Shown: positions 31,463-47,068 of the stretch, piece by piece
Layout of the letters: every line of letters starts with the position of its first letter
Position numbering within the stretch: position 1 is the first letter of the stretch
Source: an uncultured Chloroflexia bacterium
GTDB taxonomy: Bacteria; Chloroflexota; Limnocylindria; Limnocylindrales; CSP1-4
Direction: 5' to 3'
DNA length: 64,000 nt
Assembly (NCBI GenBank): GCA_963760735.1
Contig: CAVXEB010000007.1
Location: 149,600-213,599 of the forward strand
Translations under genes and position numbers: made by a program
The notes under the pieces: generated by a model
Databases searched by the model: none
What the model saw: only the letters and a program-made list of their open reading frames with translations
Told to the model about the DNA's origin: nothing

Positions 31463-31538
31463 GCGGGAGTAACTCAGTTGGCAGAGTGTCAGCTTCCCAA
31501 GCTGAATGTCGCGGGTTCGAACCCCGTCTCCCGCTCCA
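31463..31538 (+). tRNA. tRNA-Gly (anticodon CCC)
   Basis: Cloverleaf folds by hand. Acceptor GCGGGAG/CTCCCGC; D-arm ACTC/GAGT; anticodon stem TCAGC/GCTGA with loop TTCCCAA; T-arm GCGGG-TTCGAAC-CCCGT; discriminator T; encoded CCA. Confidence 0.9.
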
Positions 31539-31709
31539 TTTCCTCAACTCGGCTTCCCGGCCCCTCTTCCTCCGCGACTTCGTCCGATCGACGCAGGAAC
31601 TCCGGGATGGACTCACCCCTGCCGGCGATCCCACCACCGTAACGGCGCGTTTCGTGCGGGCCCGGGACCGCCGAGGTGGCCGCTCCTCGACCCGTCAGCC
31701 GCCGTGGCA

Positions 31710-32894
31710 TCAGAGCGGATCTGGCGGTCGCTCGCCGGCGTCGAGCCGTTGCAGCTGTGCCGGCGTGAATGGCGGGTCGAACAGGAACGGTGATTCCTGG
31801 AAGCAACGGAACATCTCGGCGATGAACTGCACGCGATCATCGAGATCGGCCCAGTCGACGGCCCCGGATTCCCGCGGGTCATCACGCGTCGGATCGATCC
31901 GATCGAGAAGATCGCGGAGCTCGGGCAGGACGATTTCCCGGAGTGACGGCGGGAAATCGGCGACGAGGTCCTCGCCGAGCCGGAGGTGGACGGCGGTCCC
32001 GAGGTCGATGGACATGAGGTGTCCTGTCAGGACGCGTCGCACGAGCGCTTGCTCTTCGAGAACGAGCGCGTCGATGGCGAGATCGAGCAGCGTTCGTCGC
32101 CCGAGCAGCCGGGCGATCAACACACGCAGCCGAACGATCCAGCCGGCATCCGGAAAGAGTGCTGCGACGACGCGATCCCGCACGTCGCGGGGATCCACGA
32201 CGCCCGCGTTAAGCGCAGCCGCGATCTCGGGCTGGAGACGGGTCTGCTCGTGGAAGCCGATCTCGAGGTTGGCGAGCAGGACGAGCTGGGCGCGCGTCAT
32301 CGGGTCGACCTCGAAGCGCGCCTGCTGGTAGTGGACGAAGGCCTGGCGCAGGTAGCGCTGCCCTTCGGGCGGTTCGCCCGGCAAGAGACCCTCCACGAAC
32401 CGGGCGAGGGTGTCCGAGTCGACGGCCGCATCCCCGCCGCACTCGACGTCGAAGCGCGCGAACTCGCGGCCGATCTCCTCGAACACCCGAAGGTTGCCAC
32501 GGGCAACCGCCGCGCTCGCCCGATCCAGTGCGGCCGCAGGATCGATGACCTCCCGAACAGACCGGAGCGAGTCGCTGACAGAGATGCCCGCGCCGAATCG
32601 GCCTGCCTCCGTCATGACCTCGGTCGCGGCGCCCGTCGCGGCCGGTGAGGCTCGAAACGCCGCCTCGAGCGCGCGTTGGATGTCCTCCTTGCGGATCGTG
32701 CGTCCGGCCTGCTTCGACGCCCACGTCGCGTACGTGCACCAGTTGGCGACGGGCCCAAGGCGCGCCGCCGCCGCGTCCGAGAGATCGTGATAGGCCCGGG
32801 TGATCTGGAGGTTGCGGATCACGGGATCGGCGATGCCCGCGATGCGATCGATGTCCTCGGGGGTCCTGAGGCGGGAGAGCGATGGCGTCGACAC
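31710..32894 (-). CDS. hypothetical protein (394 aa), no family recognised
   Basis: Codon-usage-consistent ORF with conserved-looking motif ITRAYHDLS...ANWCTYATWASKQAG. Lies in the first cargo block after tRNA-Gly. Confidence 0.5.
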   Translation of the reverse strand: MSTPSLSRLRTPEDIDRIAGIADPVIRNLQITRAYHDLSDAAAARLGPVANWCTYATWASKQAGRTIRKEDIQRALEAAFRASPAATGAATEVMTEAGRFGAGISVSDSLRSVREVIDPAAALDRASAAVARGNLRVFEEIGREFARFDVECGGDAAVDSDTLARFVEGLLPGEPPEGQRYLRQAFVHYQQARFEVDPMTRAQLVLLANLEIGFHEQTRLQPEIAAALNAGVVDPRDVRDRVVAALFPDAGWIVRLRVLIARLLGRRTLLDLAIDALVLEEQALVRRVLTGHLMSIDLGTAVHLRLGEDLVADFPPSLREIVLPELRDLLDRIDPTRDDPRESGAVDWADLDDRVQFIAEMFRCFQESPFLFDPPFTPAQLQRLDAGERPPDPL

Positions 32895-32964
32895 GGCAGG
32901 CCCCGGAGTCTACCGGCCTTGACCATGCACCAAGGCGAGCCCATCTTGGGGCCATCCATTCCCT

Positions 32965-33678
32965 GTGGTCACGATCGAAGAGGGCTCGGGCTCGATGGAG
33001 CGTGACGATCCCGCCTACGCAGGCCAACGGGAATACTCACCGCAGTTCCTGAAGGTCTACGACCCCATCATCCTCGGCTTCTTCACCCGAGTCGTGTGGC
33101 GCTGCCCGACCATCCGACTGGTGGAGCCGTACCGGCGGTACATCGGCCACCGGCACCTGGACGTGGGTCCGGGGACGGGTTACTTCCTGGAACGGGCCGG
33201 CCTTCCTGACCACAGCCCGGTCACGCTCCTCGACCCGAATGCGCACGTCCTCGATCATGCATCTCGGCGCCTGCACCACCTCGACATCACGACCGTCGAA
33301 GCCGACGTCTGCAAGCCGCTTCCCGTCGATGGACCCTTCGACTCCGCCGCGCTGGCCGGCGTGCTCCACTGCCTTCCCGGACCGCTCTCGCGCAAGGCCG
33401 GGGCGGTGGCCAACGTCGCCGCGGTCCTCGCACCGACTGGCGTGCTGTTCGGCAGCTCGATCCTCGGCACCTCGGGGTCGCAGACGTGGCTGTCCCGGAG
33501 GGCGCTCGACGTCCTCAACCGACGCGGCACCTTCGACAACCTCGGGGACACGCAAGAGGGGCTCTCCGAGATCCTCCGGGCATCGTTCGATCAGGTCGAA
33601 CTCGAGACGATCGGCTCGATGGCGATCTTCGCGGCGACGAATCCGCGCACGAACTCGTCAACTATCGCGACACCATGA
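32965..33678 (+). CDS. class I SAM-dependent methyltransferase
   Basis: Motif I LDVGPGTGYF. Rossmann-fold methyltransferase length. Alternative start at 32995 (MERDDPAYAG). Confidence 0.7.
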   Translation: MVTIEEGSGSMERDDPAYAGQREYSPQFLKVYDPIILGFFTRVVWRCPTIRLVEPYRRYIGHRHLDVGPGTGYFLERAGLPDHSPVTLLDPNAHVLDHASRRLHHLDITTVEADVCKPLPVDGPFDSAALAGVLHCLPGPLSRKAGAVANVAAVLAPTGVLFGSSILGTSGSQTWLSRRALDVLNRRGTFDNLGDTQEGLSEILRASFDQVELETIGSMAIFAATNPRTNSSTIATP

Positions 33679-33692
33679 CTCTGCCTGATTCG

Positions 33693-33758
33693 CATGGTGA
33701 TCCACGCGTTGTCACATGGTGATCCACGCGTTGTCACATGGTGATCCACGCGTTGCAC
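33693..33758. repeat. 22-bp direct repeat catggtgatccacgcgttgtca, 2.9 tandem copies
   Basis: Read directly: catggtgatccacgcgttgtca | catggtgatccacgcgttgtca | catggtgatccacgcgttg(cacgc). Intergenic, immediately 5' of the tRNA-3'-half remnant at 33778. Confidence 0.85.
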
Positions 33759-33777
33759 GCACAGGCACCAGGGCTGG

Positions 33778-33813
33778 CTGAAAGTCGCGGGTTCGAACCC
33801 CGTCTCCAGCTCC
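33778..33813 (+). other. tRNA-Gly 3'-half remnant (att-like relic)
   Basis: ctgaaAgtcgcgggttcgaaccccgtctccAgctcc matches the T-arm and acceptor 3' strand of tRNA-Gly(CCC) at 31463 with 2 substitutions. No 5' half upstream. Confidence 0.6.
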
Positions 33814-33951
33814 TACATCCCTTTCTCGATCTCAAGGCGTCGAAGTGCGCGCTCACGACGACGTTCTGCTCGGAATCGTGGCCCTGGCGGTCCCGCTGCC
33901 GGAGGGCCGCCGACCGATCGCACGAGTCGATCGGGGCGAGTCCGGCGTGTG

Positions 33952-34632
33952 CTAGCCGTCGTCGTCTTCGAAATCCGGCCAGGCCGCGATGTCGACGCCG
34001 TGGTTCTCCGGCGAAGCGAGCGTCCACCAGTGGGGCGCGTGTGTCTCATCGGCCAGGCGTCCGCCCGCTGCGAGAGCCGCCGCGACTCTAGCATCCGCCT
34101 GATCTGCGGGCACGCTGACGTCGATGTGCGTACGGCCGCGGCCAGGCTTGGGAGGGTGCAGACGTTGGAACGAGACGTGTGGATTGCGTCTGTGTCGATC
34201 GACTACGTCCTCATCCGCGCCGAGGCTCTTGTACCCGAGTACGGCGGCCCAGAAAGGACCAACATCGCTGCCGGCATCCTGCGCCACGGCGATGCCTACT
34301 ACCTGGACCTGGGAGGGGTCTGGCTCGACCTGCAGCCTCCTGGCCTCGACCGAGATCCGGCGGGCCAGCTCAACATCGCGCTGGCTCAAGGCCCCGTACT
34401 CTCCGGAGGCTGTGCGGACAGTCACTCCCTCGGGCCGCAGGTCTACGTCGGGGAAGTGGCCAACAGCCTCGGCAACCTCGGCGATTGCCGCCACGAACCT
34501 GGCGCCATGCTCGAACGACCTGACGCGGAAGTAGGCGTGTGCGCCCGAGAACAGGACCCGCCAGTCCTCGACTCCGTCAGCGTCGTGCAGGGCTCGAGCC
34601 GTCGTTCTCTTCTCGTTCATCCGGGGAACCAT
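33952..34632 (-). CDS. fusion protein: pterin-4a-carbinolamine dehydratase (PCD/DCoH) domain + VOC/glyoxalase-like domain
   Basis: N-half EDWRVLFSG...FRVRSFEHGARFVAAIAEVAEAVGHFPDVDLRPEGVTVRTASGEYGALSQRDVELARRI fits the PCD signature. C-half ...WAAVLGYK...HIDVSVPADQADARVAAALAAGGRL is glyoxalase/VOC-like. Confidence 0.7.
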   Translation of the reverse strand: MVPRMNEKRTTARALHDADGVEDWRVLFSGAHAYFRVRSFEHGARFVAAIAEVAEAVGHFPDVDLRPEGVTVRTASGEYGALSQRDVELARRISVEARRLQVEPDPSQVQVVGIAVAQDAGSDVGPFWAAVLGYKSLGADEDVVDRHRRNPHVSFQRLHPPKPGRGRTHIDVSVPADQADARVAAALAAGGRLADETHAPHWWTLASPENHGVDIAAWPDFEDDDG

Positions 34633-34808
34633 AGCTCACATCGTGAGTGATTTCTGGCTACACCACCTCGCGGACCGCAGACGTTCACGACCCGCGGTAC
34701 GTAACTGGCGTTTGCCGACGGCCGACCTGTCGGCAAGGCCCGGCATGGCTCCGTCTGGCCCCCCGTTTGACCCCTTGACCCGGAACCCTCTGCAGCGAGG
34801 ACACGCTG

Positions 34809-35795
34809 CTTCCCAAGCTGAATGTCGCGGGTTCGAACCCCAGTCCTCCCGCTCCTCTTCCCTCGCCTGACGTTCGCCTGAGCGCGACCGCAGTCAGGGG
34901 AGCGGCTCGTAGACGAGCGTCCCCCCGTCCTCGAGGGTGATGGTCAGGGCGTTCGACGCAATCGCGTAGCTCGCGCTGTTCGTCAGGGCCAGCACGTACA
35001 GGTCGCCGTGGGACCCGTCACCGCAGGGCACGATCGCCGACGGCCCGGGCACGATCGACAGGCCGCCCGCCGCCGTCGCCGTCCACTGGCCGACGAGGGT
35101 GTTGCAGTCGGCGATCGCGCTGAACTGCCCGCCCGCCTTGAACGAGACGGTGTACTTCGAGCGCTCGGCGGCCGGGATGACGCCCTGATGCACGGGGTCG
35201 CGCGTGGTGATGCTGACGAGCTGCCAGTTCGTCCCGACCAGGTCGGCGCCCGGGCTCGGGGCGGGTGTCGGGGACGGCGTCGGCTTGGGCGTCGGGGTCG
35301 GTGTCGGGGTCGGGGTCGGGGTCGGTGTGGGCGTCGGTGACTTCGTGGGTGCCTCGGTCGGCTCCGTCGTCGGCGAGGCGGACGCGCTCGGCGGGGCCGA
35401 AGCGGTCACCGTGGGCGTCGGGCTCGCGGTCGGCGTGGCCGTCGGGGTCGGGCTCGGTGACGCGCTCGGTGACGGGCTCGCGCTGGCTGACGCGGAAGGC
35501 GACGAGCTGGCGCTGGGTGACGCCGAGGGACTCGGGACCACCGCCGTGCCGGAGCTCGCCACGAACGTGCCGGTCCCACCGTCGGCTGTCGTGAGCGTCA
35601 GCTGACCGCCGGCGATGACCCAGGTCGTCACATTCGCGAGCTCGTGGGCGAAGATGTCCCCGTACGACCCGTCCGGGCAGGCCACGAGCGTGCTTGGCCC
35701 GGGCGTGATCGTGATGCCGTCCTTGCCGCGCAGGCTGTAGGTCCCGGCCAGGGCATTGCAGTCCGCCCTGGCGCTGAACGTGCCGTCGGTGGCGA
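34809..35795. repeat. 985-bp direct repeat, copy A (100% identical to 45693-46679); begins with tRNA-Gly 3'-half remnant 34809-34855
   Basis: Identity starts exactly at cttcccaag (anticodon loop of tRNA-Gly CCC) and ends at ...tgccgtcggtggcga. ORFs in all frames translate identically in both copies. Offset 10884 bp. Confidence 0.9.
34894..35795 (-). pseudogene. 5'-truncated duplicate of the META-domain gene at 45778-46884
   Basis: C-terminal ~300 codons are identical to 45778-46677. The upstream part is replaced by unrelated sequence. It lacks the signal/TM segment and first META half, so it is probably non-functional. Confidence 0.7.
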
Positions 35796-35995
35796 GGCCC
35801 CGACCCCGCGATCCGCGGGTGGCGCAACCGCGCAACGTGTTCGCGACCCTTGACACGGTTGCACACGAGTGCATACACTCGTGTGCCGCAACGCGTGTTC
35901 GTTCCTGTAGCGGACCACGCGACGTCGTCGGCCCCGAGGCGTGGCGGTCAGTCGTTGCCGATGGACCGGTTGTCCATCGGCGCGAGGAGCGTCGG

Positions 35996-37501
35996 ATGAA
36001 GGTCCTGGCCGACCGCGAGGTCTGGCTCGTCACCGGCAGCCAAGCGCTCTACGGTGACGACGCCCTGCGCACCGTGGCCGAACACGCCATGGAGATCGGC
36101 AGTGCGCTCGACGCCGCCGATGTGATCCCGGTCCGGATCGTGACCAAACCCGTCGTCACGACCACGGAACAGATCCGGGGGGTCCTGCTCGAGGCGACCG
36201 CAGCGGCCCGTTGCATCGGTGTCATCGCCTGGATGCACACCTTCTCGCCCGCCCGGATGTGGATCCCGGGCCTGATCGCCCTGCAGAAGCCCCTCCTGCA
36301 CCTGCACACGCAGCACAACCGCGATCTCCCCTGGGCCGAGATCGACATGGATTTCATGAACCTCAACCAGTCGGCGCACGGCGATCGCGAGTTCGGCTAC
36401 ATCGAGACCCGCCTGCGATGCAGCCGGACCACCGTGGTCGGCCATTGGCGCGACCCCGAGGTCATCGATCGGATCGCCGCCTGGACCCGCGCCGCAAGCG
36501 GCGTCCACGAGCTCCAGCGTCTCCGACTCGCCCGCTTCGGCGACAACATGCGCCAGGTCGCGGTCACCGAAGGTGACAAGGTCGAGGCCCAGATCCGGCT
36601 CGGCGTCCGGGTCGACGGCTACGGCATCGGCGAGCTCGTCGCCGCGGTCAGGGCGGCTTCCGACGGGGACGTGGACCAGCTGGTCGACGAGTACGACGCG
36701 ACCTATCACCTGGCGCCAGCACTGCGCAGCGGCGGCGAACGTCGTTCGGCGCTCCGCGAGGCCGCCCGGATCGAGATCGGTCTTCGGGCGTTCCTCGAGA
36801 CCGGAGGCTTCGAAGCCTTCACGGACACCTTCGAGGATCTCGGCGACCTCGTTCAGCTCCCCGGACTCGCCGTCCAGCGCCTCATGGCCGACGGCTACGG
36901 CTTCGGTGCCGAGGGCGACTGGAAGACTGCCCTCCTCGTCCGGGCGATGAAGGTCATGGCGACCGGCCTGGCCGGCGGGACGTCGTTCATGGAGGACTAC
37001 ACCTACCACCTGGCGCCCGACGGACCGATGGTCCTGGGCGCCCATATGCTCGAGGTCTGCCCGAGCATCGCGGATGGGACCCCCTCGTGCGAGATCCATC
37101 CCCTGTCGATCGGCAATCGGTCGGACCCCGTCCGGCTCGTGTTCATGGCCCGGCCCGGGCCGGCCGTCGTCGTCGGCCTCCTCGATCTTGGTGATCGCTT
37201 CCGACTCGTCCTCAACGAGGTCGAGGTGGTCAGGCCTCCCGAGGACCTGCCGCGCCTGCCGGTCGCCCGCGCCCTCTGGAAGCCGCTTCCGGGGCTGAAA
37301 GGGGCGGCCGAGGCATGGCTGCTCGCGGGCGGCCCGCACCACACGAGCCTGAGCACCGCATTGAGCCGCACCCACCTCGAGGATTTCGCCGAGATGGTCG
37401 GCATCGAGCTCATCACCATCGGCCTGGGGACCGCGGCCACCGACATCAAGAAGGAGCTGCGCTGGAACCAGGCGTACTACCAGCTCGCCCGGGGGCCGTA
37501 G
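35996..37501 (+). CDS. araA: L-arabinose isomerase
   Basis: Start [20 protein letters not shown] (ATG 35996, GAGGAG 9 nt upstream). AraA-specific motifs [22 protein letters not shown], full ~500-aa length. Confidence 0.95.
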
Positions 37502-37687
37502 GTCACGGGTGAGCTGCGGTCGGCAGTGGACGTCGTCGTCCGAGTCGACGAGACCCTGCCGCCGAACGACGATCAGGACGCGCCGGCCTGCGACACGGGC
37601 GGCGCGCAGAAGGGAGGTTCTGCGACTGGAGGAGACCTCAGACCCGGCATGTCGGGCAGTGTGATCAGGTGCTTGGAGGTTTTCGGG

Positions 37688-38731
37688 ATGATGAGACATG
37701 GCGCGCGACGTGGTGGGCTGGCGATCCTCGTGACCGCCATGCTCGTCGTGAGCGCATGCAACGCTTCGTCAACGCCGTCACCCGCCGCGAGCGGCGGCAC
37801 GGGGACGCCCGCCAGCGCGCAGTTCTGCTCTGGGGTGACCCTGGTGTTCTTCCCTGGTGGCACGGCGGGCGGCGGTTTCGAGACGGTCGTCTACAACGGT
37901 GCGAAGGCCGCCGAGGCGGCATTCGGGCCCAAGATCACGTACCAGTGGTCCGATTGGGACCCGAACAAGATGATCACCCAGTTCTCCCAGGCGATGGCGA
38001 CCAAGCCCGACGGCATCGCCGTCATGGGTCACCCCGGTGATGCAGCCTTCGACCCGCTCATCAAGCAGGCCGAGGACCAGGGCATCTTCGTGACTGTCAT
38101 GAACACCGAGCTCTCCAACGCCCAGACGGCCTACGCGACCAAGGGCCTCGGCTACGTCGGTGCGGTCCTCCACGACGCGGGCTCGGCGCTCGCCAACGAG
38201 GCCATCGCGCGTGGCGGGCTCAAGTCCGGGGACCGTGCCTTCGTCTGGGGCCTCAAGGCCCAGGCCGGGCGCGGCGAGCGGACGCAGGGGATCATCGACG
38301 CGCTCGACAAGGCGGGCCTGAAAGTCGACTACCAGGAGATCGACGACGCGACCAACAAGGATCCGGCCAGCGGGACGCCGGTGTTCACGGGCTACGCCTC
38401 TTCGCATGCTGACGTCAAGGCCATGTTCATCGACCACGGCAACCTGACGTCGACCATCCCCACCTACATGAAGGCCGCCAACCTCGCCGCCGGCAGCGTG
38501 TACATGGCCGGCTTCGACGCCTCTGCCGCGACGGTGAAGGGGATCCAGGACGGCTACATCAGCCTGGTCATCGACCAGCAGCAGTATCTCCAGGGCTTCA
38601 TGGCCGTCCAGCAGCTGTGCCTGACCAAGAAGTACGGCTTCAGCGGCCTCTTCATCAACACCGGTGGCGGCTTCGTCGACAAGTCCAACATCGACGCGAT
38701 CGCCCCGCTGGTGCAACAGCAGATCCGGTAG
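37688..38731 (+). CDS. sugar ABC transporter substrate-binding lipoprotein (periplasmic-binding-protein type I, ribose/arabinose class)
   Basis: Start MMRHGARRGGLAILVTAMLVVSAC (lipobox). RbsB/AraF-like fold. The 5' part of the ORF-track ORF is non-coding. Confidence 0.85.
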   Translation: MMRHGARRGGLAILVTAMLVVSACNASSTPSPAASGGTGTPASAQFCSGVTLVFFPGGTAGGGFETVVYNGAKAAEAAFGPKITYQWSDWDPNKMITQFSQAMATKPDGIAVMGHPGDAAFDPLIKQAEDQGIFVTVMNTELSNAQTAYATKGLGYVGAVLHDAGSALANEAIARGGLKSGDRAFVWGLKAQAGRGERTQGIIDALDKAGLKVDYQEIDDATNKDPASGTPVFTGYASSHADVKAMFIDHGNLTSTIPTYMKAANLAAGSVYMAGFDASAATVKGIQDGYISLVIDQQQYLQGFMAVQQLCLTKKYGFSGLFINTGGGFVDKSNIDAIAPLVQQQIR

Positions 38732-39616
38732 ATGAAGGTCTCTCCGGCGGATGACCGCCAGATTGGCGGGCGCGACAGCGCCCGCCAATCGGCTCCCGCC
38801 TCTCCGCCTCGCCTCGAGCTGCGCGGGGTCTCCAAGTCGTTCGGCGGCGTTCACGTCCTCGAGCGCATCGACTTCCGACTCGGCTCGAGCGAAGTGGTGG
38901 GCCTGCTCGGCGACAATGGCGCCGGCAAGTCCACCCTCATCAAGATCATCACCGGCGTCCATCAGCCCGACCATGGCGAGATCTTCTTCGGCGGCGAGCC
39001 GGTCCAGGGCCTCACCGTCGAGAAGGCGCGCGGTCTGGGCGTCGAGACCGTCTACCAGGAGCGGGCGCTGGCAGATCAGCAGCCGCTCTGGCGCAACATC
39101 TTCATGGGGCGGCCGCTGACCTATTCGCTCGGCTTCCTGCGGGTCGGCCAGATGCGCCGCATCACCGAGGAGCTCATGGGCGAGTCCATGGGCTTCACCT
39201 CGGCGGCCCTGACACCGAACACGACCGTCCTGGGCCTGTCGGGCGGCGAGCGGCAGGGCCTGGCGATCGTCAGGGCCCTCCACTTCGAAGCCGACATCAT
39301 CGTGCTCGACGAGCCGACGATGGGCCTGTCGCTGAAGGAAACCGAGAAGCTCCTCGGCTTCGTCGAGGGTATCCGGGCGGCGGGCAAGTCGGCGATCTTC
39401 ATCGACCACAACATCTTCCACGTGTACTCGGTTGCCGATCGAATCGTGGTGCTGGATCGGGGACGGGTCGCGGGCGAGTTTCCGACGTCGCGCTACTCCC
39501 TCGAGGAGCTCATGGACATCATGCGCGAGGTTGCGTCGAGCGGGACGTACACCGAGGCCGAGCGCTACCGGCCGCCGAGCCAGCCGGCCTCCGAACCTGC
39601 GGGGGGGCTCGCATGA
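38732..39616 (+). CDS. sugar ABC transporter ATP-binding protein (single NBD)
   Basis: Walker A GDNGAGKSTL, signature LSGGERQGLAIVRAL, Walker B IIVLDEPT, H-loop. Confidence 0.85.
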   Translation: MKVSPADDRQIGGRDSARQSAPASPPRLELRGVSKSFGGVHVLERIDFRLGSSEVVGLLGDNGAGKSTLIKIITGVHQPDHGEIFFGGEPVQGLTVEKARGLGVETVYQERALADQQPLWRNIFMGRPLTYSLGFLRVGQMRRITEELMGESMGFTSAALTPNTTVLGLSGGERQGLAIVRALHFEADIIVLDEPTMGLSLKETEKLLGFVEGIRAAGKSAIFIDHNIFHVYSVADRIVVLDRGRVAGEFPTSRYSLEELMDIMREVASSGTYTEAERYRPPSQPASEPAGGLA

Positions 39617-40611
39617 GCGCGCGGCCCGCGGCGGTCGGAACCCAGCGGGGCGGCCGGAGCGCGTTCCTCGCCTCCTGGGCCTCGCAGATCGGCATCACGG
39701 TGGCGTTCCTCGTCCTGTGGATCGCCTTCGTCATCCTCGCGCCGAACACATTCCTGAAGGCGCCGATCTACCAGTCGTTCGCCCAGACGACGCCGTTCTT
39801 CGCGATCATGGCGATGCCCCTCACGATGGTGATCGTTGCCGGCGACATCGACCTGTCGTTCCCGGCGACGATGTCCCTCGGCATGGTCGGGTTCGTCGGC
39901 GTGTGGCAGGCCACGGGAAGCGTCGCGCTCGGGGTCGCCGCAGCCCTTGGCGTCGGCGTCCTGTGCGGCCTCTTCAACGGGTTCTTCGTCGTGTTCATCG
40001 GCATCCCGTCGCTGGTCGTGACGATCGGGACACAGTTCCTCTTCCGCGGCCTCGCGCTGGTTCTGGTCGGCGGCAAGCAGTACCCGCTGGTCACCACCCA
40101 GACATCGCCCGCGTACGAGGTCCTCGTTGGGAGGCTGTTCGGCATCCCGATGGAGTTCTACTGGCTCGTCCTCATCGCCGTCGCCACCTGGATCCTGCTC
40201 AACCGTCACCGGCTGGGCCAGAACGCGTACGTCACCGGCGACAACAGGCAGGCCGCCGCGCTCATGGGCATCCCCATCGGTCGGACGCGGATCGCGCTGT
40301 TCGTCCTCGTCGGGCTCGCTGCAACGTTCGCGGGCGTCCTCAACAGCCTCCAGGTCGTCAACTACTACCCGTCGATGGGTGACGGCTATCTCCTGCCGAC
40401 CCTCGCGGCGATCTTCGTCGGCGGCACGTCGGTGTTCGGTGGTCGCGGCAGCGTCTGGGGGACGGCCCTCGGCGCGTTCATGATCGGCGGGATCCAGGCC
40501 GGTCTCGTCGCCATCGGACTGAGCGACTACTACCCCAGCGTCGTGTACGGCGCCGTCATCCTGATCTCCGTCTCCATCCACGCCCTGCTGCGGCGCCGCT
40601 TCGAGTACTGA
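39613..40611 (+). CDS. sugar ABC transporter permease (RbsC/AraH-like)
   Basis: About 9-10 TM helices. Branched-chain/sugar permease family signature region. 4-nt overlaps with both neighbours. Confidence 0.85.
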   Translation: MSARPAAVGTQRGGRSAFLASWASQIGITVAFLVLWIAFVILAPNTFLKAPIYQSFAQTTPFFAIMAMPLTMVIVAGDIDLSFPATMSLGMVGFVGVWQATGSVALGVAAALGVGVLCGLFNGFFVVFIGIPSLVVTIGTQFLFRGLALVLVGGKQYPLVTTQTSPAYEVLVGRLFGIPMEFYWLVLIAVATWILLNRHRLGQNAYVTGDNRQAAALMGIPIGRTRIALFVLVGLAATFAGVLNSLQVVNYYPSMGDGYLLPTLAAIFVGGTSVFGGRGSVWGTALGAFMIGGIQAGLVAIGLSDYYPSVVYGAVILISVSIHALLRRRFEY

Positions 40612-40712
40612 TGGACGGCACGAGGGCGACCGCGGGCGCGCACGACGACCATGCCGGCGGCACCCGCCGCGGCCGGTCCCGGCCGCCCGGCCGAGGGAGC
40701 CGGCCCGCGACG

Positions 40713-41894
40713 ATGAAGGACATCGCGAACGCGACCGGGGTTTCGCGGAGCACGGTGTCACGCATCCTCAACAACACCCCGCTCACCGTCCCGATCGCCC
40801 AGGAGACCCGGGAGCGCGTCCTGGCCGCGGCTCGCGACCTCGAGTACCGCCCGAACCCCCTCGCGCGGGCGCTGCGGGGGGCGCCCACGATGCTTCTCGG
40901 GGCGATCGTCCGCGACATCACCGACCCCTTCTTCGCCGGCGCGATCGAGGCCGTCTCGCGCGCCGCCCGGGCCCGCGGCTACAACATCGTGCTCGGCCTC
41001 GCTCACGCCCGGGCGACGGAGGCGCACGAGCTGGCGACCGTGCTCGAGGCCCGCCATTGCGACGGGATCCTCCTCCTCGGCGACATGGGCGATCAGCCCC
41101 GCCTCCTGGCCGACCTCCGTGGCTCGCACGTCCCGGTGGTCGCGATGTGGCAGGGCACCAGGCTCGACCTCATTCCAGGCGTCCAGGTCGACAACCACCT
41201 GGGCATCAGGATCGCCATCGAGCACCTCGCCGGTCTGGGTCATCGGCGGATCGCCTTCATCGGCGGCCGCCCGCTCGGCGACATCCGCGAGCGGCAGGCC
41301 GCCTACGCCGAGGCCGTGTCGGAGATCCTGGGCGAGATCCCGGCCGACTACCTCCAGCACGTCGCCAACACTCCCGAGGGTGGGGCGGCGGCGCTGGATG
41401 CGCTCCTGCGCGTCTCGCCCAGGCCGACCGCGATCGTCGCCTCGACGGACGTCCTGGCGATCGGCGTCCTGCGCGGCGCGCTCCTTCGTGGCGTGAAGAT
41501 CCCCGGCGAGCTCTCGGTCGTCGGGTTCGACGACATCCCGATGGCGAAGTCCACCGTGCCCGGCCTGACCACGATCCGGATGCCGATCGCGGCCATGGCC
41601 ACGGAGGCGATCGCCATGGCCGTGGGCTTGTCCGACGCCGACGGGGATGGGGATCGGGACGGGCGAGCACCGGGGGCCGGCCCCGCCGGTACATCATCGG
41701 CAGCGCCGCGGACCGCGGCGGCTGCTCGAGGCGACGACGCAACCACGCAGCCGCAGGGTCGGTCGACGATCCGGGTCTTTCCGCCATCGCTTGTCGTCCG
41801 CGGCTCGTCGGCAGCGCCTCCTCCGGGTGAGCGTGAGCCGTCCGAAGGCCCACGATCGGAGCCCGAGCAGGCGTCGCGTGAGGGAGCGCCGTGA
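40713..41894 (+). CDS. LacI family transcriptional regulator (likely arabinose-island repressor)
   Basis: HTH MKDIANATGVSRSTVSRILNN plus sugar-binding core. Unusual ~90-aa low-complexity C-terminal tail. Alternative upstream start at 40611. Stop overlaps the araD GTG (GTGA). Confidence 0.85.
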   Translation: MKDIANATGVSRSTVSRILNNTPLTVPIAQETRERVLAAARDLEYRPNPLARALRGAPTMLLGAIVRDITDPFFAGAIEAVSRAARARGYNIVLGLAHARATEAHELATVLEARHCDGILLLGDMGDQPRLLADLRGSHVPVVAMWQGTRLDLIPGVQVDNHLGIRIAIEHLAGLGHRRIAFIGGRPLGDIRERQAAYAEAVSEILGEIPADYLQHVANTPEGGAAALDALLRVSPRPTAIVASTDVLAIGVLRGALLRGVKIPGELSVVGFDDIPMAKSTVPGLTTIRMPIAAMATEAIAMAVGLSDADGDGDRDGRAPGAGPAGTSSAAPRTAAAARGDDATTQPQGRSTIRVFPPSLVVRGSSAAPPPGEREPSEGPRSEPEQASREGAP

Positions 41895-42604
41895 GCCTCG
41901 ACGACCTCCGGGAGCAGGTCTGCTCCGCCAACACTGCCCTGGTCCGCGCCGGCCTGGTGACCCTGTCCTTCGGCAATGCCAGTGGCGTCGATCGAGGGGC
42001 CGGCGTGATGGTCATCAAGCCCAGCGGCGTGCCGTGTGACGCCCTGCAGCCGGCCGACCTGGTCGCCGTCGATCTGGCCTCGGGCGCCGCGATCGCCGGC
42101 ACCTTTCGCCCGTCCTCCGATACCCCGACCCATCTCGCCCTCTACCGGCGCTACCCGGAGATCGGGGGGGTCGTCCATACCCACTCACCGTGGGCCTCGG
42201 CATGGGCCCAGGCCGGCCGGGCGATCGCCTGCTTCGGGACGACGCACGCCGACCACTTCCACGGACCCGTACCCGTGACACGGGCGCTCACCCCGGTCGA
42301 GCTCGGGGAGACCTACGAGGCGGATACCGGCGCCGTCATCATCGAGACCCTGGACGCGCTCGAGCTCGCACCCCTCGAGATGCCGGCGGTCCTGGTCCGC
42401 TCGCACGGGCCGTTCACCTGGGGGATCGACGCCACCGAGGCGGTCGCAAATGCCATCGCGCTCGAGGCGGTAGCGGCGATGGCCCAGCGAACACTGGCGA
42501 TCGACGATGTCGCGGACGCGATCGACGAGGCGCTCCTCGAGCGCCACTTCCGACGAAAGCATGGGCCCACCGCCTACTACGGCCAGGTGGGCCGCCATGG
42601 CTGA
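41891..42604 (+). CDS. araD: L-ribulose-5-phosphate 4-epimerase
   Basis: Class II aldolase/adducin fold with AraD motifs ([25 protein letters not shown], metal-binding His cluster). Sits between lacI and the ribulokinase gene. Confidence 0.9.
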
Positions 42605-42701
42605 CCCAAGGGGCGGGGCAACGCCACCGGGATGCGGCACCGTGCGGCAGGCCTCCGGGATCGTCGGGGGCGGCGGTGGCCGGCTCGGGCGGAGGAGGAT
42701 C

Positions 42702-44306
42702 GTGAAGCAGCAGGACGATCACGCGGCCGAGCTGATCAGGGCCGGTGACGCGATCCTCGGGATCGAGCTCGGCTCGACGCGGATCAAGGCATCGCTGATC
42801 GCGCCCGACACGACGCCTCTCGCCTCCGGCTCACACTCCTGGGCAAGCCGGCTCGACGAAGGTGTCTGGACCTACGACATGGCGGACGTCTGGAGCGGCC
42901 TGGCGGCGAGCTACGCGTCGCTCGTCGAGGACGTCCGCGACCGCTATTCCCTTCAGCTGACGACCGTGGCAGCCATGGGCGTGAGCGGGATGATGCACGG
43001 GTACCTGCCGCTGGACGTCGATGGAAGGCTCTCGGTGCCATTCCGGACCTGGCGGAACAACATCACCGGCGAGGCGTGCGCCGCCTTGACCCCGCTCCTC
43101 GGCTTCGCCGTGCCGCAGCGCTGGAGCATCGCCCACCTGTACCAGTCGATCCTGGAGGGGCAGCCACATGTCAGCCGGATCGACCGGCTCACCACGCTGG
43201 CGGGGTACGTGCACCTGACGCTCACCGGCAACCACGCGGTGGGTGTCGGCGAGGCCTCGGGCATGTTCCCCATCGACCCGCGGAGCGGTGACTGGGACAC
43301 CGCGCGGATGGCGACGTTCGACGCGCTCATCGCGCCGCAGGGGTTGGGTTGGGCCCTCCGCGACATCCTTCCCACCGTCCTCGCCGCCGGCCGCCCAGCC
43401 GGACAGCTGTCGGCAACCGGTGCGCGGCTGCTCGACCAGTCCGGGGGGCTCCCCGCCGGGATCCCCCTCTGTCCTCCCGAGGGCGACGCCGGGACGGGCA
43501 TGGTCGCGACCAACGCGGTGCGGCCGCGCTCGGGGAACGTGTCGGCGGGCACGTCGGTGTTCGCCATGATCGTTCTGGAGAAGAGCCTGGGCGGCATCCA
43601 CGATGGGATCGACATCGTGGTCACGCCCGACGGCAAGCCCGTGGCCATGGCCCACTCGAACAACGGGTCCGGCGACCTCGACGCATGGATCGCGCTCTTC
43701 GGCCAGGTGGCACGGGCACTCGGGATGGACGCCCGTCCGGAGGACCTCTACGACCGCCTCCTCCCGCTGGCGGTGGACGGTGACCCGGACGCAGGCGGCC
43801 TCCTCGCCATCAACTACGTGTCGGGTGAGCACGTGACGGGCTTCACGGAAGGCCGGCCCCTGTTCGCGCGGAACCAGGACAGCAGGTTCACCCTCGAGAA
43901 CTTCGTGCGGGCCATGTTCTTCGCTTCGCTCTGCGCCCTGCGGACGGGCGTGGACATCCTGACCCGGCAGGAGGGCGTCGTCATCGAGGAGATCCGGGGC
44001 CACGGTGGGTTCTTCCAGGGCGGCGACACCGGGCAACGGATGATGGCGGCCGCACTCGACGTTCCGGTCTCCATTCCTGCGACGGCCGCCGAAGGTGGCG
44101 CCTGGGGCATGGCCGTGCTCGCCGCCTACATGCTCCGTCGCGACGCCGGGCAGTCGCTACCCGACTTCCTCGACGAACGGATCGCCGGCACCATCGGCCC
44201 GCCGGTCAGACCCGAGCCGCGTGACGTGCAGGGCTTCGCGGAATTCTTCGCTCGCCACACGCGGGGGCTTGCCATCGAGCGAGCGGCCGTGGACACGCTG
44301 CGTTGA
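42702..44306 (+). CDS. araB: ribulokinase (FGGY carbohydrate kinase)
   Basis: FGGY N-terminal motif [15 protein letters not shown]. Full FGGY length (534 aa) from GTG 42702, preceded by GGAGGAGGA. The ORF-track ATG-less 5' extension overlaps araD and is unlikely. Confidence 0.85.
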
Positions 44307-44451
44307 GCTGCGTTCCTGCCGGTTCATCGCCACCGATGGATGGTCATCGGGATCATCCGACGGCCGTCGCCGCACGTCCCTGGTGCCCAGCTGCCCGGTC
44401 CCGAGCCGTTGCCGCAGTCGCTGTCCGACAGTAGAATCCGGTTCCTCCCGA

Positions 44452-44527
44452 GCGGGAGTAACTCAGTTGGCAGAGTGTCAGCTTTCCAAGCAGAATGTCG
44501 CGGGTTCGAATCCCGTCTCCCGCTCCA
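44452..44527 (+). tRNA. tRNA-Gly (anticodon TCC); one A.A mismatch in anticodon stem
   Basis: Same scaffold as tRNA-Gly(CCC) (identical acceptor, D-arm and T-arm apart from AAT in the T-loop) but with anticodon loop TTTCCAA. Anticodon stem TCAGC/GCAGA has an A-A mismatch at 29-41. Confidence 0.8.
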
Positions 44528-44634
44528 CTTCCCATCGGAACTCCGGAAGACACCCTACTTGGTGTCGTCTCTTGTCTTCTGGGCTCTTCGGACTCGTGCT
44601 CGCCGGCCGCCGCCGACCTGCGGCATCGGCGCCT

Positions 44635-45513
44635 TCAGTGCAGCCAGGCGAGCATCTCGGCCCAGCGCGTCAGCGGCGCAAGGTGTCCATCGCCAGGGAA
44701 GATCGCGAACGTCGCTCCCGGGATGGTGGCAGCGAGGTAGTCCGCCTCGTCGCGGTCGGCCGGGGCACCATCTCCCACCCAGACCGCAGCGTCGCACCTG
44801 ATCTCGGCGAGAGAGAAACCCCAAGGCTGGATGAACGCCATCGTGTCGGCGACCGCGCCGGCGGAGCCCTGCCGCGCCGCGTCGCGTGCCCACTCGATCA
44901 TGGCCTCGCGCACGTCCGAACGCGCGAAGAGCCGCTGGTCCGGACCCGGAGGCTCATCCGAGTTCTCGAACAAGCCGTCGTAGACGGACGCGGGATTGTC
45001 GGCGAAGCCCTTCCATTGATTGACCACGCCATCGAGTGCCCCCTGCGGATCGACGGGCAGCAGGCGGCTCAGCCTGCGAGTCTCATCGTCGAATGAGCCT
45101 GGGACCTCAGTCATCGGCCCGACGCTGCCCGACACGCCGACCGACGTGACGATGGCGGGAAGACTGAAGGCGCACGCGAGGGCATAGGGACCGCCGCCGG
45201 ACCATCCCATCAGAGGGCAAGGCCGCAGGTCGAGCTGCGCGTGGAGCTCAGCGAAGTCATCCGCCCAGCTCAGGAGCGAACGGCCCGGCTTCGGATCCGA
45301 CCAGCCGTAGCCCGGTCGGTCGACGGTGATAAGGCGGACGCCAGCGGCCGCGGTGGCATCCGTGTCCGGGCACTGGAGCCGGGTGGCGGGCATGCCGTGG
45401 AACATGACCACCGGACGTCCTCGCAGGTCGCCCCACTCGGCGTAGGCGAGCGACCTGCCGTCGCGGAGCGTGACCCGGCCTTCGGACCGAGGAGTCGCGG
45501 AGACACTGGCCAT
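44635..45513 (-). CDS. alpha/beta-hydrolase fold protein
   Basis: HGMPATR oxyanion region, nucleophile elbow GWSGGG (GxSxG), C-terminal His. Confidence 0.8.
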   Translation of the reverse strand: MASVSATPRSEGRVTLRDGRSLAYAEWGDLRGRPVVMFHGMPATRLQCPDTDATAAAGVRLITVDRPGYGWSDPKPGRSLLSWADDFAELHAQLDLRPCPLMGWSGGGPYALACAFSLPAIVTSVGVSGSVGPMTEVPGSFDDETRRLSRLLPVDPQGALDGVVNQWKGFADNPASVYDGLFENSDEPPGPDQRLFARSDVREAMIEWARDAARQGSAGAVADTMAFIQPWGFSLAEIRCDAAVWVGDGAPADRDEADYLAATIPGATFAIFPGDGHLAPLTRWAEMLAWLH

Positions 45514-45692
45514 CCCAACCTCCGCGCGCGGACGACAACCATCCGCAGTATTGCCCGGTCCATCGCGACCATAGCGGCGAGCGCCTCGTTGTCGGCCACC
45601 GGTGTCGAGACTTGGAGGCGGTCACGACACCATGACAATCTGTGATTCGCTCGACCCTCCATGCTCGTGCTGCTGCGCTCACGAGCTCAGGA

Positions 45693-46679
45693 CTTCCCAA
45701 GCTGAATGTCGCGGGTTCGAACCCCAGTCCTCCCGCTCCTCTTCCCTCGCCTGACGTTCGCCTGAGCGCGACCGCAGTCAGGGGAGCGGCTCGTAGACGA
45801 GCGTCCCCCCGTCCTCGAGGGTGATGGTCAGGGCGTTCGACGCAATCGCGTAGCTCGCGCTGTTCGTCAGGGCCAGCACGTACAGGTCGCCGTGGGACCC
45901 GTCACCGCAGGGCACGATCGCCGACGGCCCGGGCACGATCGACAGGCCGCCCGCCGCCGTCGCCGTCCACTGGCCGACGAGGGTGTTGCAGTCGGCGATC
46001 GCGCTGAACTGCCCGCCCGCCTTGAACGAGACGGTGTACTTCGAGCGCTCGGCGGCCGGGATGACGCCCTGATGCACGGGGTCGCGCGTGGTGATGCTGA
46101 CGAGCTGCCAGTTCGTCCCGACCAGGTCGGCGCCCGGGCTCGGGGCGGGTGTCGGGGACGGCGTCGGCTTGGGCGTCGGGGTCGGTGTCGGGGTCGGGGT
46201 CGGGGTCGGTGTGGGCGTCGGTGACTTCGTGGGTGCCTCGGTCGGCTCCGTCGTCGGCGAGGCGGACGCGCTCGGCGGGGCCGAAGCGGTCACCGTGGGC
46301 GTCGGGCTCGCGGTCGGCGTGGCCGTCGGGGTCGGGCTCGGTGACGCGCTCGGTGACGGGCTCGCGCTGGCTGACGCGGAAGGCGACGAGCTGGCGCTGG
46401 GTGACGCCGAGGGACTCGGGACCACCGCCGTGCCGGAGCTCGCCACGAACGTGCCGGTCCCACCGTCGGCTGTCGTGAGCGTCAGCTGACCGCCGGCGAT
46501 GACCCAGGTCGTCACATTCGCGAGCTCGTGGGCGAAGATGTCCCCGTACGACCCGTCCGGGCAGGCCACGAGCGTGCTTGGCCCGGGCGTGATCGTGATG
46601 CCGTCCTTGCCGCGCAGGCTGTAGGTCCCGGCCAGGGCATTGCAGTCCGCCCTGGCGCTGAACGTGCCGTCGGTGGCGA
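45693..46679. repeat. 985-bp direct repeat, copy B (intact copy); begins with tRNA-Gly 3'-half remnant 45693-45739
   Basis: See copy A. Here the repeat is continuous with the intact 5' end of the META-domain gene. Confidence 0.9.
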
Positions 46680-46884
46680 ACTTGATCGTGTAGCGCGTCT
46701 GCTCTTCGGCCGGGAATACCCCCTGGAACGCCGGGGTCTGGCCGGTGATCGCGGCCAGCTGCCAGGTCGAGCCGGTCAGGGTGCCGGTGTCCGGGCCGCG
46801 GCCCAGGATGGCGAAGAGGGCGAGCCCGCCGATGACGACGGCGGCGACGACGCCGATGACGACGACCACGGGGCGTTGCTGCAT
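45778..46884 (-). CDS. membrane-anchored protein with two HslJ-like META (DUF306) domains and Pro/Thr-rich linker
   Basis: Start MQQRPVVVVIGVVAAVVIGGLALFAILG (N-terminal TM anchor; ATG 46884 with GGAGAGGGA upstream). Two META-like halves (TWQLAAI..., ...NWQLVSI...DCNTLVGQW...). Paralogous to the 9029-10486 protein. Confidence 0.75.
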   Translation of the reverse strand: MQQRPVVVVIGVVAAVVIGGLALFAILGRGPDTGTLTGSTWQLAAITGQTPAFQGVFPAEEQTRYTIKFATDGTFSARADCNALAGTYSLRGKDGITITPGPSTLVACPDGSYGDIFAHELANVTTWVIAGGQLTLTTADGGTGTFVASSGTAVVPSPSASPSASSSPSASASASPSPSASPSPTPTATPTASPTPTVTASAPPSASASPTTEPTEAPTKSPTPTPTPTPTPTPTPTPKPTPSPTPAPSPGADLVGTNWQLVSITTRDPVHQGVIPAAERSKYTVSFKAGGQFSAIADCNTLVGQWTATAAGGLSIVPGPSAIVPCGDGSHGDLYVLALTNSASYAIASNALTITLEDGGTLVYEPLP

Positions 46885-47068
46885 CAGTCCCTCTCCATCG
46901 GGTGGACCATCGAAGGAGGCATCGACTCGGCGACAGCTGATCGTCGCCATGCCGGTTCGTCCGAGTCCGGCGTGCACACTGCGGCCCGCGCCGCGGTCTC
47001 GTCAAGGCGGACGGCACGCCTCTAACTGAGGCCCACTCCCCTCACCCGACCCGGGCGGCCGTGGCGCG

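Follow-up and report, generated by a model that had tools for sequence, protein, structure and literature searches.

A flexible region of tRNA-bounded islets and a repeat-flanked arabinose unit downstream of tRNA-Gly(CCC) in a Limnocylindria-like Chloroflexota genome

The window (the whole 64-kb stretch of DNA that was analysed) contains at 31.5-46.9 kb a flexible region downstream of tRNA-Gly(CCC) of a Limnocylindria-like Chloroflexota genome. As shown in Table 1, intact and partial tRNA-Gly copies alternate there with small islets, an arabinose block and a gene for a META-domain protein (META). A preliminary description of this DNA had listed intact tRNA-Gly genes for two anticodons, CCC and TCC, together with three 3'-half copies in the same orientation. 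This inventory was confirmed far above chance: a 3'-half profile search of the 64 kb returned exactly five significant copies (E <= 3.5e-10) and no further decayed remnant right of META, while a T-arm 18-mer had 6 matches at <=3 mismatches against 0.40 expected, a number attained in 0 of 100 shuffles. The concern that the three remnants could belong to unrelated structured RNAs was not borne out, as no Rfam family other than tRNA claims them. The tRNA-Gly(CCC) gene, identical at 76/76 positions in loci L001 and L022 and in 54 further fetched loci, is the anchor (attL-type) gene of the array.

Table 1. Features of the region downstream of tRNA-Gly(CCC), in window coordinates
Feature	Position	Strand	Evidence or remark
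tRNA-Gly(CCC), intact, type 1	31463-31538	+	ARAGORN; Rfam 67.6 bits
Islet 1, 2.24 kb	31539-33776		hypothetical gene and SAM methyltransferase, without integrase
Hypothetical 394-aa gene, islet 1	31710-32894	-	Pfam/NCBIfam scan; GC3 z -2.6
SAM methyltransferase, islet 1	32965-33678	+	Pfam/NCBIfam scan; GC3 z -2.1
Perfect tandem repeat, 22 nt x 2.9 (CATGGTGATCCACGCGTTGTCA)	33693-33755	+	TRF
Remnant 1	33777-33813	+	35/37 identical to CCC gene; profile E = 3.5e-10
Islet 2, 1.0 kb	33814-34808		one fusion gene
Pterin-4a-carbinolamine dehydratase + glyoxalase-like (VOC) fusion, islet 2	33952-34632	-	Pfam
R, left copy	34809-35795	+	remnant 2 and 5'-truncated META fragment
Remnant 2	34809-34855	+	tRNA 3' half from C31
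META fragment, 5'-truncated	34894-35795	-	first ~68 codons absent
araA promoter-like site, TTGACA-18-TACACT	35850-35879	+	promoter scan
Palindrome, 11-nt arms, overlapping araA promoter-like site	35861-35886	+	sequence
Arabinose block: araA, sugar-binding protein, ABC ATPase, permease, LacI-family regulator, araD, araB	35990-44306	+	Pfam
tRNA-Gly(TCC) promoter-like site	44409-44437		promoter scan
tRNA-Gly(TCC), intact, mosaic	44452-44527	+	ARAGORN and Rfam
Hydrolase islet, 1.17 kb	44528-45692		alpha/beta hydrolase, then island-side arm
tRNA-Gly(TCC) hairpin	44549-44566
Alpha/beta hydrolase	44635-45513	-	Pfam; GC3 z = -2.6
Island-side (P-type) arm, ~70 nt	45622-45692		85% identical to L099 arm
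R, right copy	45693-46679	+	remnant 3 and 3' two-thirds of intact META
Remnant 3	45693-45739	+	tRNA 3' half from C31
META-domain (HslJ-like) exported protein, intact	45778-46884	-	Pfam PF03724 x 2

Remnant 1 extends from the anticodon stem (3' strand) as far as the acceptor end of tRNA-Gly. Remnants 2 and 3 both start at C31 (CTTCCCAAG), one base ahead of the anticodon loop, and each carries two 1-nt insertions in the T-stem/acceptor part. Each of these two remnants forms the left end of one copy of a perfect 987-bp direct repeat (R), which the preliminary description had overlooked; the copies match with 0 mismatches at an offset of 10884. R consists of the relic and 940 bp, i.e., the 3' two-thirds of the META gene, and its 100% identity extends through slippage-prone 6- and 12-nt arrays. 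In translation, the META fragment of the left copy has non-coding sequence in place of the N-terminus; the intact META protein carries a Pro/Thr-rich linker. Remnants 2 and 3 are one relic, recently duplicated together with 940 bp of the META gene, and the reading of the three remnants as three successive relics was not upheld. The "ara island" therefore lies between the copies of a 987-bp repeat, which enclose the ara operon, tRNA-Gly(TCC) and the hydrolase, and not between two independent attR scars. No evident microhomology was found at the junction 35795/35796. For annotation, none of the three remnants should be labelled a tRNA gene, and the META fragment should be entered as a pseudogene.

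An empty site, which the preliminary description had suggested looking for in relatives, was present in L001, the closest relative found, where the META stop codon lies 36 nt from tRNA-Gly(CCC); the window therefore carries ~14.15 kb extra. The L001 tRNA with its 41-nt leader aligns to 31422-31545 of the window (92.8%), and its tRNA 3' half with META aligns to 45693-47007 (85.5%), stopping exactly at 45693, the left edge of remnant 3. The META ortholog of L001 has 87% aa identity (alignment A1), and the intact META gene is the ancestral right-hand neighbour of the tRNA. In relatives the same tRNA lies next to various genes from the series to the right in the window: cupin/aldolase in L084, an MFS gene in L146, L077 and L122, an SDR gene in L162 and MTTB in L139. 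This synteny evidence was drawn from short metagenome contigs of several species, and the nearest relatives are distant, with META at most ~87-92% identical at the aa level. A META-centred survey of 32 species-representative genomes, which is no direct test of the array, gave poor synteny and a tRNA-Gly within 10 kb only in L005, L022 and L019. A division of the tRNA leaders into types A and B was dropped, since they form a continuum of one promoter architecture.

A comparison of codon usage and composition, suggested in the preliminary description, found the genes of the small islets atypical (GC3 z-scores -2.1 to -4.4). The most atypical gene of the window is the dehydratase-VOC fusion of islet 2 (GC3 z = -4.4, codon z = -4.4). 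A homologue of the islet 1 methyltransferase (80% aa identity) occurs in L018 with no tRNA close by, and the hydrolase has homologues in L174 and L175, again in contexts without a tRNA, the homology being confined to 44554-45598 of the window. The tandem repeat CATGGTGATCCACGCGTTGTCA lies 22 nt upstream of remnant 1 and may represent arm-type integrase-binding sites; comparable short direct repeats are found on the island side of other att-like remnants. The islets may be deletion-decayed islands or small non-autonomous elements that use an integrase encoded elsewhere.

Codon usage of the ara genes is native-like (z between -0.9 and +1.0), and genes of the araB type are frequent in the lineage, where they stand in other contexts. 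Relatives carry araB, araD and lacI in different orders with no tRNA nearby, an observation that fits transfer of the block as well as its absence. The araA promoter-like site begins 55 nt past the junction 35795/35796, and the palindrome that overlaps it is a putative operator. Arabinose catabolism had been called accessory here; its position agrees with this, but because the ara genes are native-like and araB-type genes common elsewhere, position is all that supports the term.

The first reading had also noted that no integrase, excisionase or transposase is visible in the window. This holds for domains in the scanned coding-like ORFs, a set that leaves out the 2801-aa ORF at 10605-19010; within 31.5-46.9 kb, neither PF00589 nor another recombinase was found in any ORF. 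Phage genes were likewise not found in these scanned ORFs, the array cargo being metabolic or hypothetical only. The boundary of remnants 2 and 3 recurs on other contigs, both in phage attP-integrase modules and in metagenomic att-like remnants. Among 15 IMG/VR contigs, 13 carry the 3' half only, starting at CTTCCCAAG; in seven contigs of this family a 395-aa ORF adjoins the att site, and that of L041, the sole one scanned, is a PF00589 integrase. Furthermore, ~13 of 122 metagenomic matches were non-tRNA remnants that share the boundary CTTCCCAAG with the window.

Right to the junction, the arm on the island side of remnant 3 matches that of L099 at 85% identity, whereas cores, cargo and flanks differ. 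Among the fetched loci this arm occurs in L099 only, and it was not found in viral contigs. Small islets that lack an integrase recur: L099 has one with KatG, L076 one with a PIN gene, and L097, L115 and L142 have others. Integrases beside tRNA-Gly(CCC) were seen only on other contigs (L156 and L076). In L156 the integrase lies 140 nt downstream of a tRNA identical to that of the window, and the leader of this tRNA equals those of L139 and L151, both without an integrase. A jackhmmer search seeded with the L076 integrase gave L156 as the sole match. Across ~55 loci, an integrase within the 3 kb that follow tRNA-Gly(CCC) occurs in L156 alone, and activity in the lineage is therefore sparsely documented. 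The proposal of an integration hotspot at the tRNA-Gly(CCC) 3' half is largely supported by the empty site of L001, the phage and metagenomic boundary and the L099 arm, and further by the atypical islet genes, the mosaic TCC gene and the integrase-bearing element at the identical tRNA of L156.

More than a second target, tRNA-Gly(TCC) is a complete gene that has a promoter-like site and a hairpin of its own and is 95% identical to the CCC gene over 88 nt, a few flanking bases included. Within the tRNA, positions 34, 41 and 60 are the only ones at which the two genes differ. The 5' part of the TCC gene has the type-1 states T16 and A29 and its 3' part the type-2 states A41 and T60, plus T34, so that the breakpoint falls between positions 29 and 41 and the anticodon stem contains an A29.A41 mismatch. 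Judged from these positions, the gene is a type-1/type-2 mosaic with its breakpoint in the anticodon stem-loop. Heterotypic tRNA/remnant pairs occur in L076, L099 and L142; they fit a crossover at the anticodon loop only if two successive events are assumed.

We consider stepwise build-up by tRNA-Gly integrase-type recombination, followed by recent addition of a 10,884-bp ara unit, to be the best explanation of the locus, with a probability of roughly two in three. The flexible region would have been built by tyrosine-integrase-type recombination with crossover at the anticodon loop. In such systems integration regenerates the tRNA from the 3' half borne by the element, and the old 3' half is displaced to the right (Islander, PMC4383910). 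At least three integration events appear to be still readable. One left islet 1 and remnant 1, a second left islet 2 and the relic that is now seen twice, as remnants 2 and 3, and a third left the hydrolase islet, with the mosaic tRNA-Gly(TCC) as putative attL and remnant 3 with its conserved arm as putative attR. A separate and very recent addition would have brought the 10,884-bp unit of ara operon, tRNA-Gly(TCC), hydrolase islet and R. Its likeliest route is a circular intermediate, perhaps an aberrantly excised piece of a sibling locus, that already bore the relic and 940 bp of META. This hypothetical circle would have recombined with the relic-META segment already in place, either through RecA acting within R or through an integrase acting at the core, and the outcome would be the perfect direct repeat of 987 bp together with a truncated META fragment. 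In the lambda dgal/dbio phages, aberrant excision picks up host DNA that flanks att, and re-integration duplicates this flank as a direct repeat. In the present locus, too, a long perfect direct repeat starts at the att core, but there is no phage here and the circle is hypothetical. Points against the integrase-type history are that circle, the lack of any integrase in the scanned ORFs, the sparse record of integrases at this tRNA in other loci, the heterotypic pairs, the native-looking ara genes, the lack of junction microhomology and the distance of the nearest relatives.

The same composition of the ara genes favours a 987-bp duplication without any mobile element, through a template switch or break-induced copying, which we regard as unlikely. 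Copying would have started at an older remnant beside araA, taken the relic and 940 bp of META from the downstream locus and ended in an illegitimate rejoin, which implies that the array already contained the ara block. R begins exactly at shared tRNA-half homology that could prime invasion, and neither a circular form nor an integrase was seen. However, the illegitimate rejoin it requires has left no visible microhomology, the complete second tRNA gene with its own promoter inside the array goes unexplained, and ara genes do not lie upstream of tRNA-Gly in relatives.

The identity of 100% across 987 bp, hypervariable repeat arrays included, might also point to an assembly artefact in the two R copies or their arrangement. 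The real chromosome would then have one relic-META segment, with a variant or circular molecule carrying the ara block, and the same assembly graph would fit a chromosome X-R-Y plus a 10.9-kb circle. We judge this very improbable, since the source contig is 793,593 bp long, relatives from the same projects are long-read MAGs, so that reads would easily span a 1-kb repeat, and the junction 35795/35796 between mid-META and the araA upstream region is physically required under any resolution of the graph. Although the CCC and TCC genes resemble each other into their flanks, decay of tandem tRNA-gene duplicates with unrelated rearrangements bringing in the intervening genes is hardly credible, because all remnants are 3' end fragments, two share the phage attP boundary C31, the island-side arm is common to L099, L001 has an empty site, leader similarity reflects a promoter architecture common to many loci, and neither 5'-half or internal fragments at the locus nor relatives with complete tRNA-Gly arrays here were found.

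The locus resembles several known systems. One is Islander class "A", genomic islands integrated in tDNA whose attP is centred on the anticodon (Williams 2002; Hudson et al. 2015, PMC4383910). As in these islands, displaced 3' fragments in the same orientation lie downstream of an intact tRNA gene, homology begins at the anticodon loop, and a regenerated gene, here the mosaic TCC gene, is partly element-derived. The displaced fragment of an Islander island must be an end and not internal (PMC4383910), and the three fragments found here are 3' ends on the same strand. An empty site is found in a relative, L001. Islet 1 (2.24 kb) and the interval from the tRNA to remnant 3 (14.2 kb) fall within the 2-200 kb range, but islet 2, at 1.0 kb, and the hydrolase islet, at 1.17 kb, lie below it, so that Islander filters would reject two of the three small islets. 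In contrast to Islander islands, no block has an integrase in or overlapping its interval (scanned ORFs, the 2801-aa ORF excluded), and the relic is duplicated with 940 bp of a host gene. An Islander tandem array has an integrase and a tDNA fragment per member; here the fragments are present and the integrases absent.

The tRNA-linked islands of Prochlorococcus (built by tycheposons; Hackl et al., bioRxiv 10.1101/2020.12.28.424599) share successive integrations at one tRNA that push older elements inward, scattered partial tRNAs, degenerated elements and metabolic or nutrient-use cargo. They differ in phylum (here Chloroflexota) and tRNA, and neither an integrase nor a replication module of the tycheposon type was seen in the present locus. 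The cis-mobilizable elements (CIMEs) found at ICE sites of Streptococcus (PMC5704250; ICEberg 2.0, PMC6323972) are likewise tandem att-flanked segments without recombination genes of their own, movable by an integrase in trans. The present islets are bounded by a tRNA or remnant on each side and have no recombinase, and an arm is shared with L099, but no ICE or conjugation module is adjacent, the target is a tRNA and mobility is putative. The locus is not an integron, as its repeats are tRNA 3' halves, a search for other structured RNAs or site families found none and no intI-type gene occurs in the scanned window ORFs, nor a prophage, as no structural, replication or lysis genes lie between the att sites.

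The locus is comparable to tDNA islands and Prochlorococcus tRNA-linked islands and adds to this known kind. Its flexible region, anchored at a tRNA, comes from an abundant but uncultured lineage of soil bacteria, the Limnocylindria-like Chloroflexota, of whose mobile elements, to our knowledge, almost nothing is known. The 10.9-kb arabinose-utilisation unit between 987-bp perfect repeats should be polymorphic in the population. Its repeats make the ara block prone to loss via homologous recombination. The mosaic tRNA with its anticodon inside the exchanged half is directly testable, and the conserved att arm could be used to find the cognate element and its integrase. A bolder reading, which we consider quite doubtful, is that the tRNA-Gly(CCC) 3' half serves in Limnocylindria-like Chloroflexota as a cassette-style gene-capture site, at which an XerC/D-like recombinase shuffles genes and the anticodon is rewritten. 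Gene-sized cargo may be held between the tRNA half and the conserved ~70-nt arm (the hydrolase here, KatG in L099), similarly bounded islets may hold the PIN gene (L076) and a DUF559 gene (L097), and the gene for a small XerC/D-like tyrosine recombinase may lie next to the tRNA or at another place, as in L076 and L156. Since the anticodon belongs to the exchanged half, the decoding identity of the tRNA could change on integration. If true, the change here would have been from CCC to UCC and would have left a mismatch in the anticodon stem.

Two tRNA genes were called in the window by both ARAGORN and Rfam. Direct reading together with repeat finding revealed three additional copies, all co-oriented, of the 3' portion of the tRNA-Gly(CCC) gene, which were designated remnants 1-3. 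As listed in the table, the positions reported in the preliminary description for these elements were right to within one base. Remnants 2 and 3 carry two 1-nt insertions relative to the CCC gene in the T-stem/acceptor part. A search with the T-arm 18-mer (≤3 mismatches) gave 6 matches against 0.40 expected, a number reached in no shuffle, and a profile of the 3' half recovered exactly five copies (E ≤ 3.5e-10), with no further match in the 64 kb. No other RNA family was placed on the remnants by an Rfam scan at a permissive threshold. A weak T-arm-like match (GTCGCGGGATCGACCCCC, 29440-29462; nhmmer E = 0.63) lies within the hypothetical gene hyp29091 and is most likely due to chance.

Features of the tRNA-Gly locus and related genes in the window, with GC3 z-scores against the window background (0.906 ± 0.032)
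Feature	Position	Strand	GC3 z	Remark
META-domain protein gene	8939-10486			515 aa
ORF	10605-19010			2801 aa
PEBP gene			-1.9	upstream of tRNA
hyp29091	29091-30164		-2.4	upstream of tRNA
hyp30207			-1.2	upstream of tRNA
tRNA-Gly(CCC)	31463-31538	+		ARAGORN and Rfam
hyp394			-2.6	islet 1 (31539-33776)
methyltransferase gene			-2.1	islet 1
remnant 1	33777-33813	+		35/37 bases identical to CCC gene
PCD/VOC gene			-4.4	islet 2 (33814-34808)
remnant 2	34809-34855	+		starts at C31, base before anticodon loop (CTTCCCAAG)
repeat R, left copy	34809-35795			987 bp
META fragment	34894-35795	-		in left R copy; first ~68 codons absent
promoter-like site of ara block	35850-35879			TTGACA-18-TACACT
palindrome	35861-35886			11-nt arms
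LacI-family regulator gene	40611-41894			
ara genes			-0.9 to +1.0	
tRNA-Gly(TCC)	44452-44527	+		ARAGORN and Rfam
hydrolase gene			-2.6	hydrolase islet (44528-45692)
remnant 3	45693-45739	+		start as remnant 2
repeat R, right copy	45693-46679			987 bp
META gene, complete	45778-46884	-	+0.8	holds right R copy

Remnants 2 and 3 each form the left end of one copy of a direct repeat, R, whose two copies differ at 0 positions and are offset by 10,884 bp; hence these remnants are not independent. R consists of the tRNA relic and the 3' two-thirds of the META gene, whose product is exported and has two META domains (PF03724) and a Pro/Thr-rich linker. The META fragment in the left copy lacks its start and runs into non-coding sequence, which indicates a pseudogene fragment. 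Between the copies lie, in order, the ara block, the TCC tRNA gene and the alpha/beta hydrolase gene. Thus, the three successive relics described previously are two relic lineages and one duplicated relic, and the supposed pair of attR scars around the ara island is the repeat itself. Since slippage-prone arrays of 6 and 12 nt within R are the same in both copies, the duplication is either very recent or kept uniform by conversion. The simplest one-step origin would be the Campbell-type insertion of a circle carrying R, the ara genes, tRNA-Gly(TCC) and the hydrolase gene into a resident PCD/VOC-R-META locus, and such a circle would have been excised aberrantly from a sibling genome. Duplication of R by a template switch is an unlikely alternative to this insertion, and two copies created by the assembly are very improbable.

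META homologues and the contigs that carry them assign the window to Chloroflexota. An empty site, proposed earlier as a check, was present in a relative. The closest META homologue (P0001, 87% amino acid identity, alignment A1) is encoded on the JGI contig L001, where an intact tRNA-Gly(CCC), identical to the window gene at 76/76 positions, is separated from the META stop codon by 36 nt. In blastn, the L001 tRNA with its 41-nt leader matched window 31422-31545 at 92.8%, and its 3' half with META matched 45693-47007 at 85.5%, the alignment ending at the exact left edge of remnant 3. Compared with L001, the window therefore holds ~14.15 kb extra between tRNA and relic. In other relatives the same tRNA stands beside other genes of the window's right-hand series: a P450 gene and then cupin/aldolase (L084, 1.3 kb to cupin), an MFS gene (L146, L077 and L122, 0.5-3.3 kb), an SDR gene (L162, 6 kb) or MTTB (L139, 6.4 kb). 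On the left, the tRNA is abutted by the HAD hydrolase gene (window 27583-28213, minus strand) in L139 and L151 and directly by the PEBP gene in L117 and L081, so the 5' side is variable as well. The varied genes on both sides indicate that the whole neighbourhood is flexible and the tRNA its fixed point.

The ~70 nt that precede remnant 3 (45622-45692), on the island side, were 85% identical to the left flank of a remnant on another contig, L099, and this identity runs right up to the junction ...CGCTCACGAGCTCAGGA|CTTCCCAAG. The cores, the cargo and the downstream flanks all differ between the two, and the L099 core (1172-1218) carries compensatory T-stem changes. The distal 29 nt of the arm are also present at remnant 1. 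A shared arm with differing core and cargo would be expected of attR sites that related elements have made in different hosts. In L099 and in L142, whose remnant lies ~2 kb downstream of the tRNA, the core belongs to another tRNA-Gly(CCC) type than the adjoining gene, which suggests either that elements move between hosts whose tRNA variants differ or that the 3' half has been replaced repeatedly.

The TCC gene has a promoter-like site and a hairpin of its own, and it departs from the CCC gene (type 1) at positions 34, 41 and 60 only. A natural tRNA-Gly(CCC) variant, type 2, found in L005 and L076, differs from type 1 at 16, 29, 41 and 60, with 29 and 41 forming a compensatory pair. At 16 and 29 the TCC gene agrees with type 1, and at 41 and 60 with type 2. 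Bases 29 and 41 are thereby mismatched (A29.A41), and the fold of minimum free energy does not form a cloverleaf any more. By a rough estimate, the probability that two of three random substitutions give exactly these type-2 states is ~1e-4. The best interpretation of the gene is a recombinant with its breakpoint between positions 29 and 41, as predicted for the attL gene by crossover at the anticodon loop, a model that fits the heterotypic pairs in L076, L099 and L142 only with two successive events. Remnant 3 would then be the type-1 half displaced from the TCC gene.

By their GC3 z-scores, the small islets appear foreign, and the ara block as well as META appear native. The accessory nature attributed earlier to arabinose catabolism is thus borne out by position and not by composition. 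Homologues of the hydrolase gene (83-87% nucleotide identity) occur in contexts without a tRNA in L174 and L175, and this homology covers only window 44554-45598, the gene without tRNA trailer and arm. Three atypical genes, PEBP and two hypotheticals, lie directly upstream of tRNA-Gly(CCC) at 28221-31091; neither hypothetical matched Pfam or NCBIfam. The promoter-like site of the ara block lies 55 nt past the right edge of the left R copy (35795|35796), and its -10 is overlapped by the palindrome GCACACGAGTG-CATA-CACTCGTGTGC, a plausible candidate operator of the LacI-family regulator. Genes similar to araB (~80% identity) abound in the lineage, where they stand in other gene orders with no tRNA. 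On L059 (162-1039), a tRNA-Gly 3'-half remnant is followed ~120 nt on by an araD homologue with 65% amino acid identity to that of the window, so arabinose genes adjoin this att site in another organism too. Elsewhere in the window, a second META-domain protein (515 aa) is encoded directly upstream of the 2801-aa ORF, whose GC3 is very high, and META paralogues stand beside homologues of the 515-aa gene in L014, L029, L030 and L032.

A scan of IMG/VR gave 15 contigs with this 3' half; the tRNA 5' half was absent in 13, in all of which homology begins at CTTCCCAAG. In seven contigs of this viral family (L036-L050) a 395-aa ORF adjoins the att site; the ORF of L041, the single one scanned, is a PF00589 integrase. 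The target of the family is a tRNA-Gly(CCC) of another host type, with a GAATCCC T-loop and no encoded CCA; L042 and L044 hold a complete tRNA with the same trailer. Among the matches listed in the metagenome survey (120 loci), ~13 were non-tRNA remnants with the same boundary. Short direct repeats resembling arm-type sites often precede the metagenomic remnants, and a perfect 22-nt × 2.9 array lies 22 nt upstream of remnant 1. Small islets without an integrase between tRNA and remnant recur in L099 (KatG), L076 (PIN gene), L097 (DUF559 gene), L115 and L142.

On L156 (604-1584), a PF00589 integrase lies 140 nt downstream of an identical tRNA. Its 45-nt leader is that of L139 and L151, which have no integrase; after the tRNA the L156 trailer differs and the integrase follows. 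The comparison resembles an occupancy polymorphism, with occupied and empty alleles in a single population. Integrases near this tRNA are rare: the family had fewer than two members among 134 ORFs ≤3 kb downstream in ~55 loci. On L076 (1207-2163), a XerC/D-like integrase homologous to that of L156 is encoded divergently from a type-2 tRNA-Gly(CCC), 95 nt upstream of the tRNA 5' end. On its 3' side this tRNA has an islet of 0.9 kb with a PIN gene, and a remnant of type 1; the integrase is unusual in lying outside the islet. In the window, the earlier statement that no integrase is visible held for the ORFs scanned, a set without the 2801-aa ORF; the blocks would be decayed or served by a trans-acting enzyme.

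These results indicate that the reading of the locus as a stacked tRNA hotspot is right in kind: site-specific integration at the anticodon loop, by which older material is displaced to the right, stands, with three corrections, to the relic count, the bracket of the ara island and its composition. Such displacement has been described for tDNA islands (PMC4383910) and for Prochlorococcus islands (bioRxiv 10.1101/2020.12.28.424599). The locus is a genuine and clearly bounded case of a phenomenon known elsewhere, found here in a phylum that has been little studied, and its noteworthy details are the perfect repeat of 987 bp, the mosaic tRNA whose anticodon has changed, and a conserved att arm with variable single-gene cargo.
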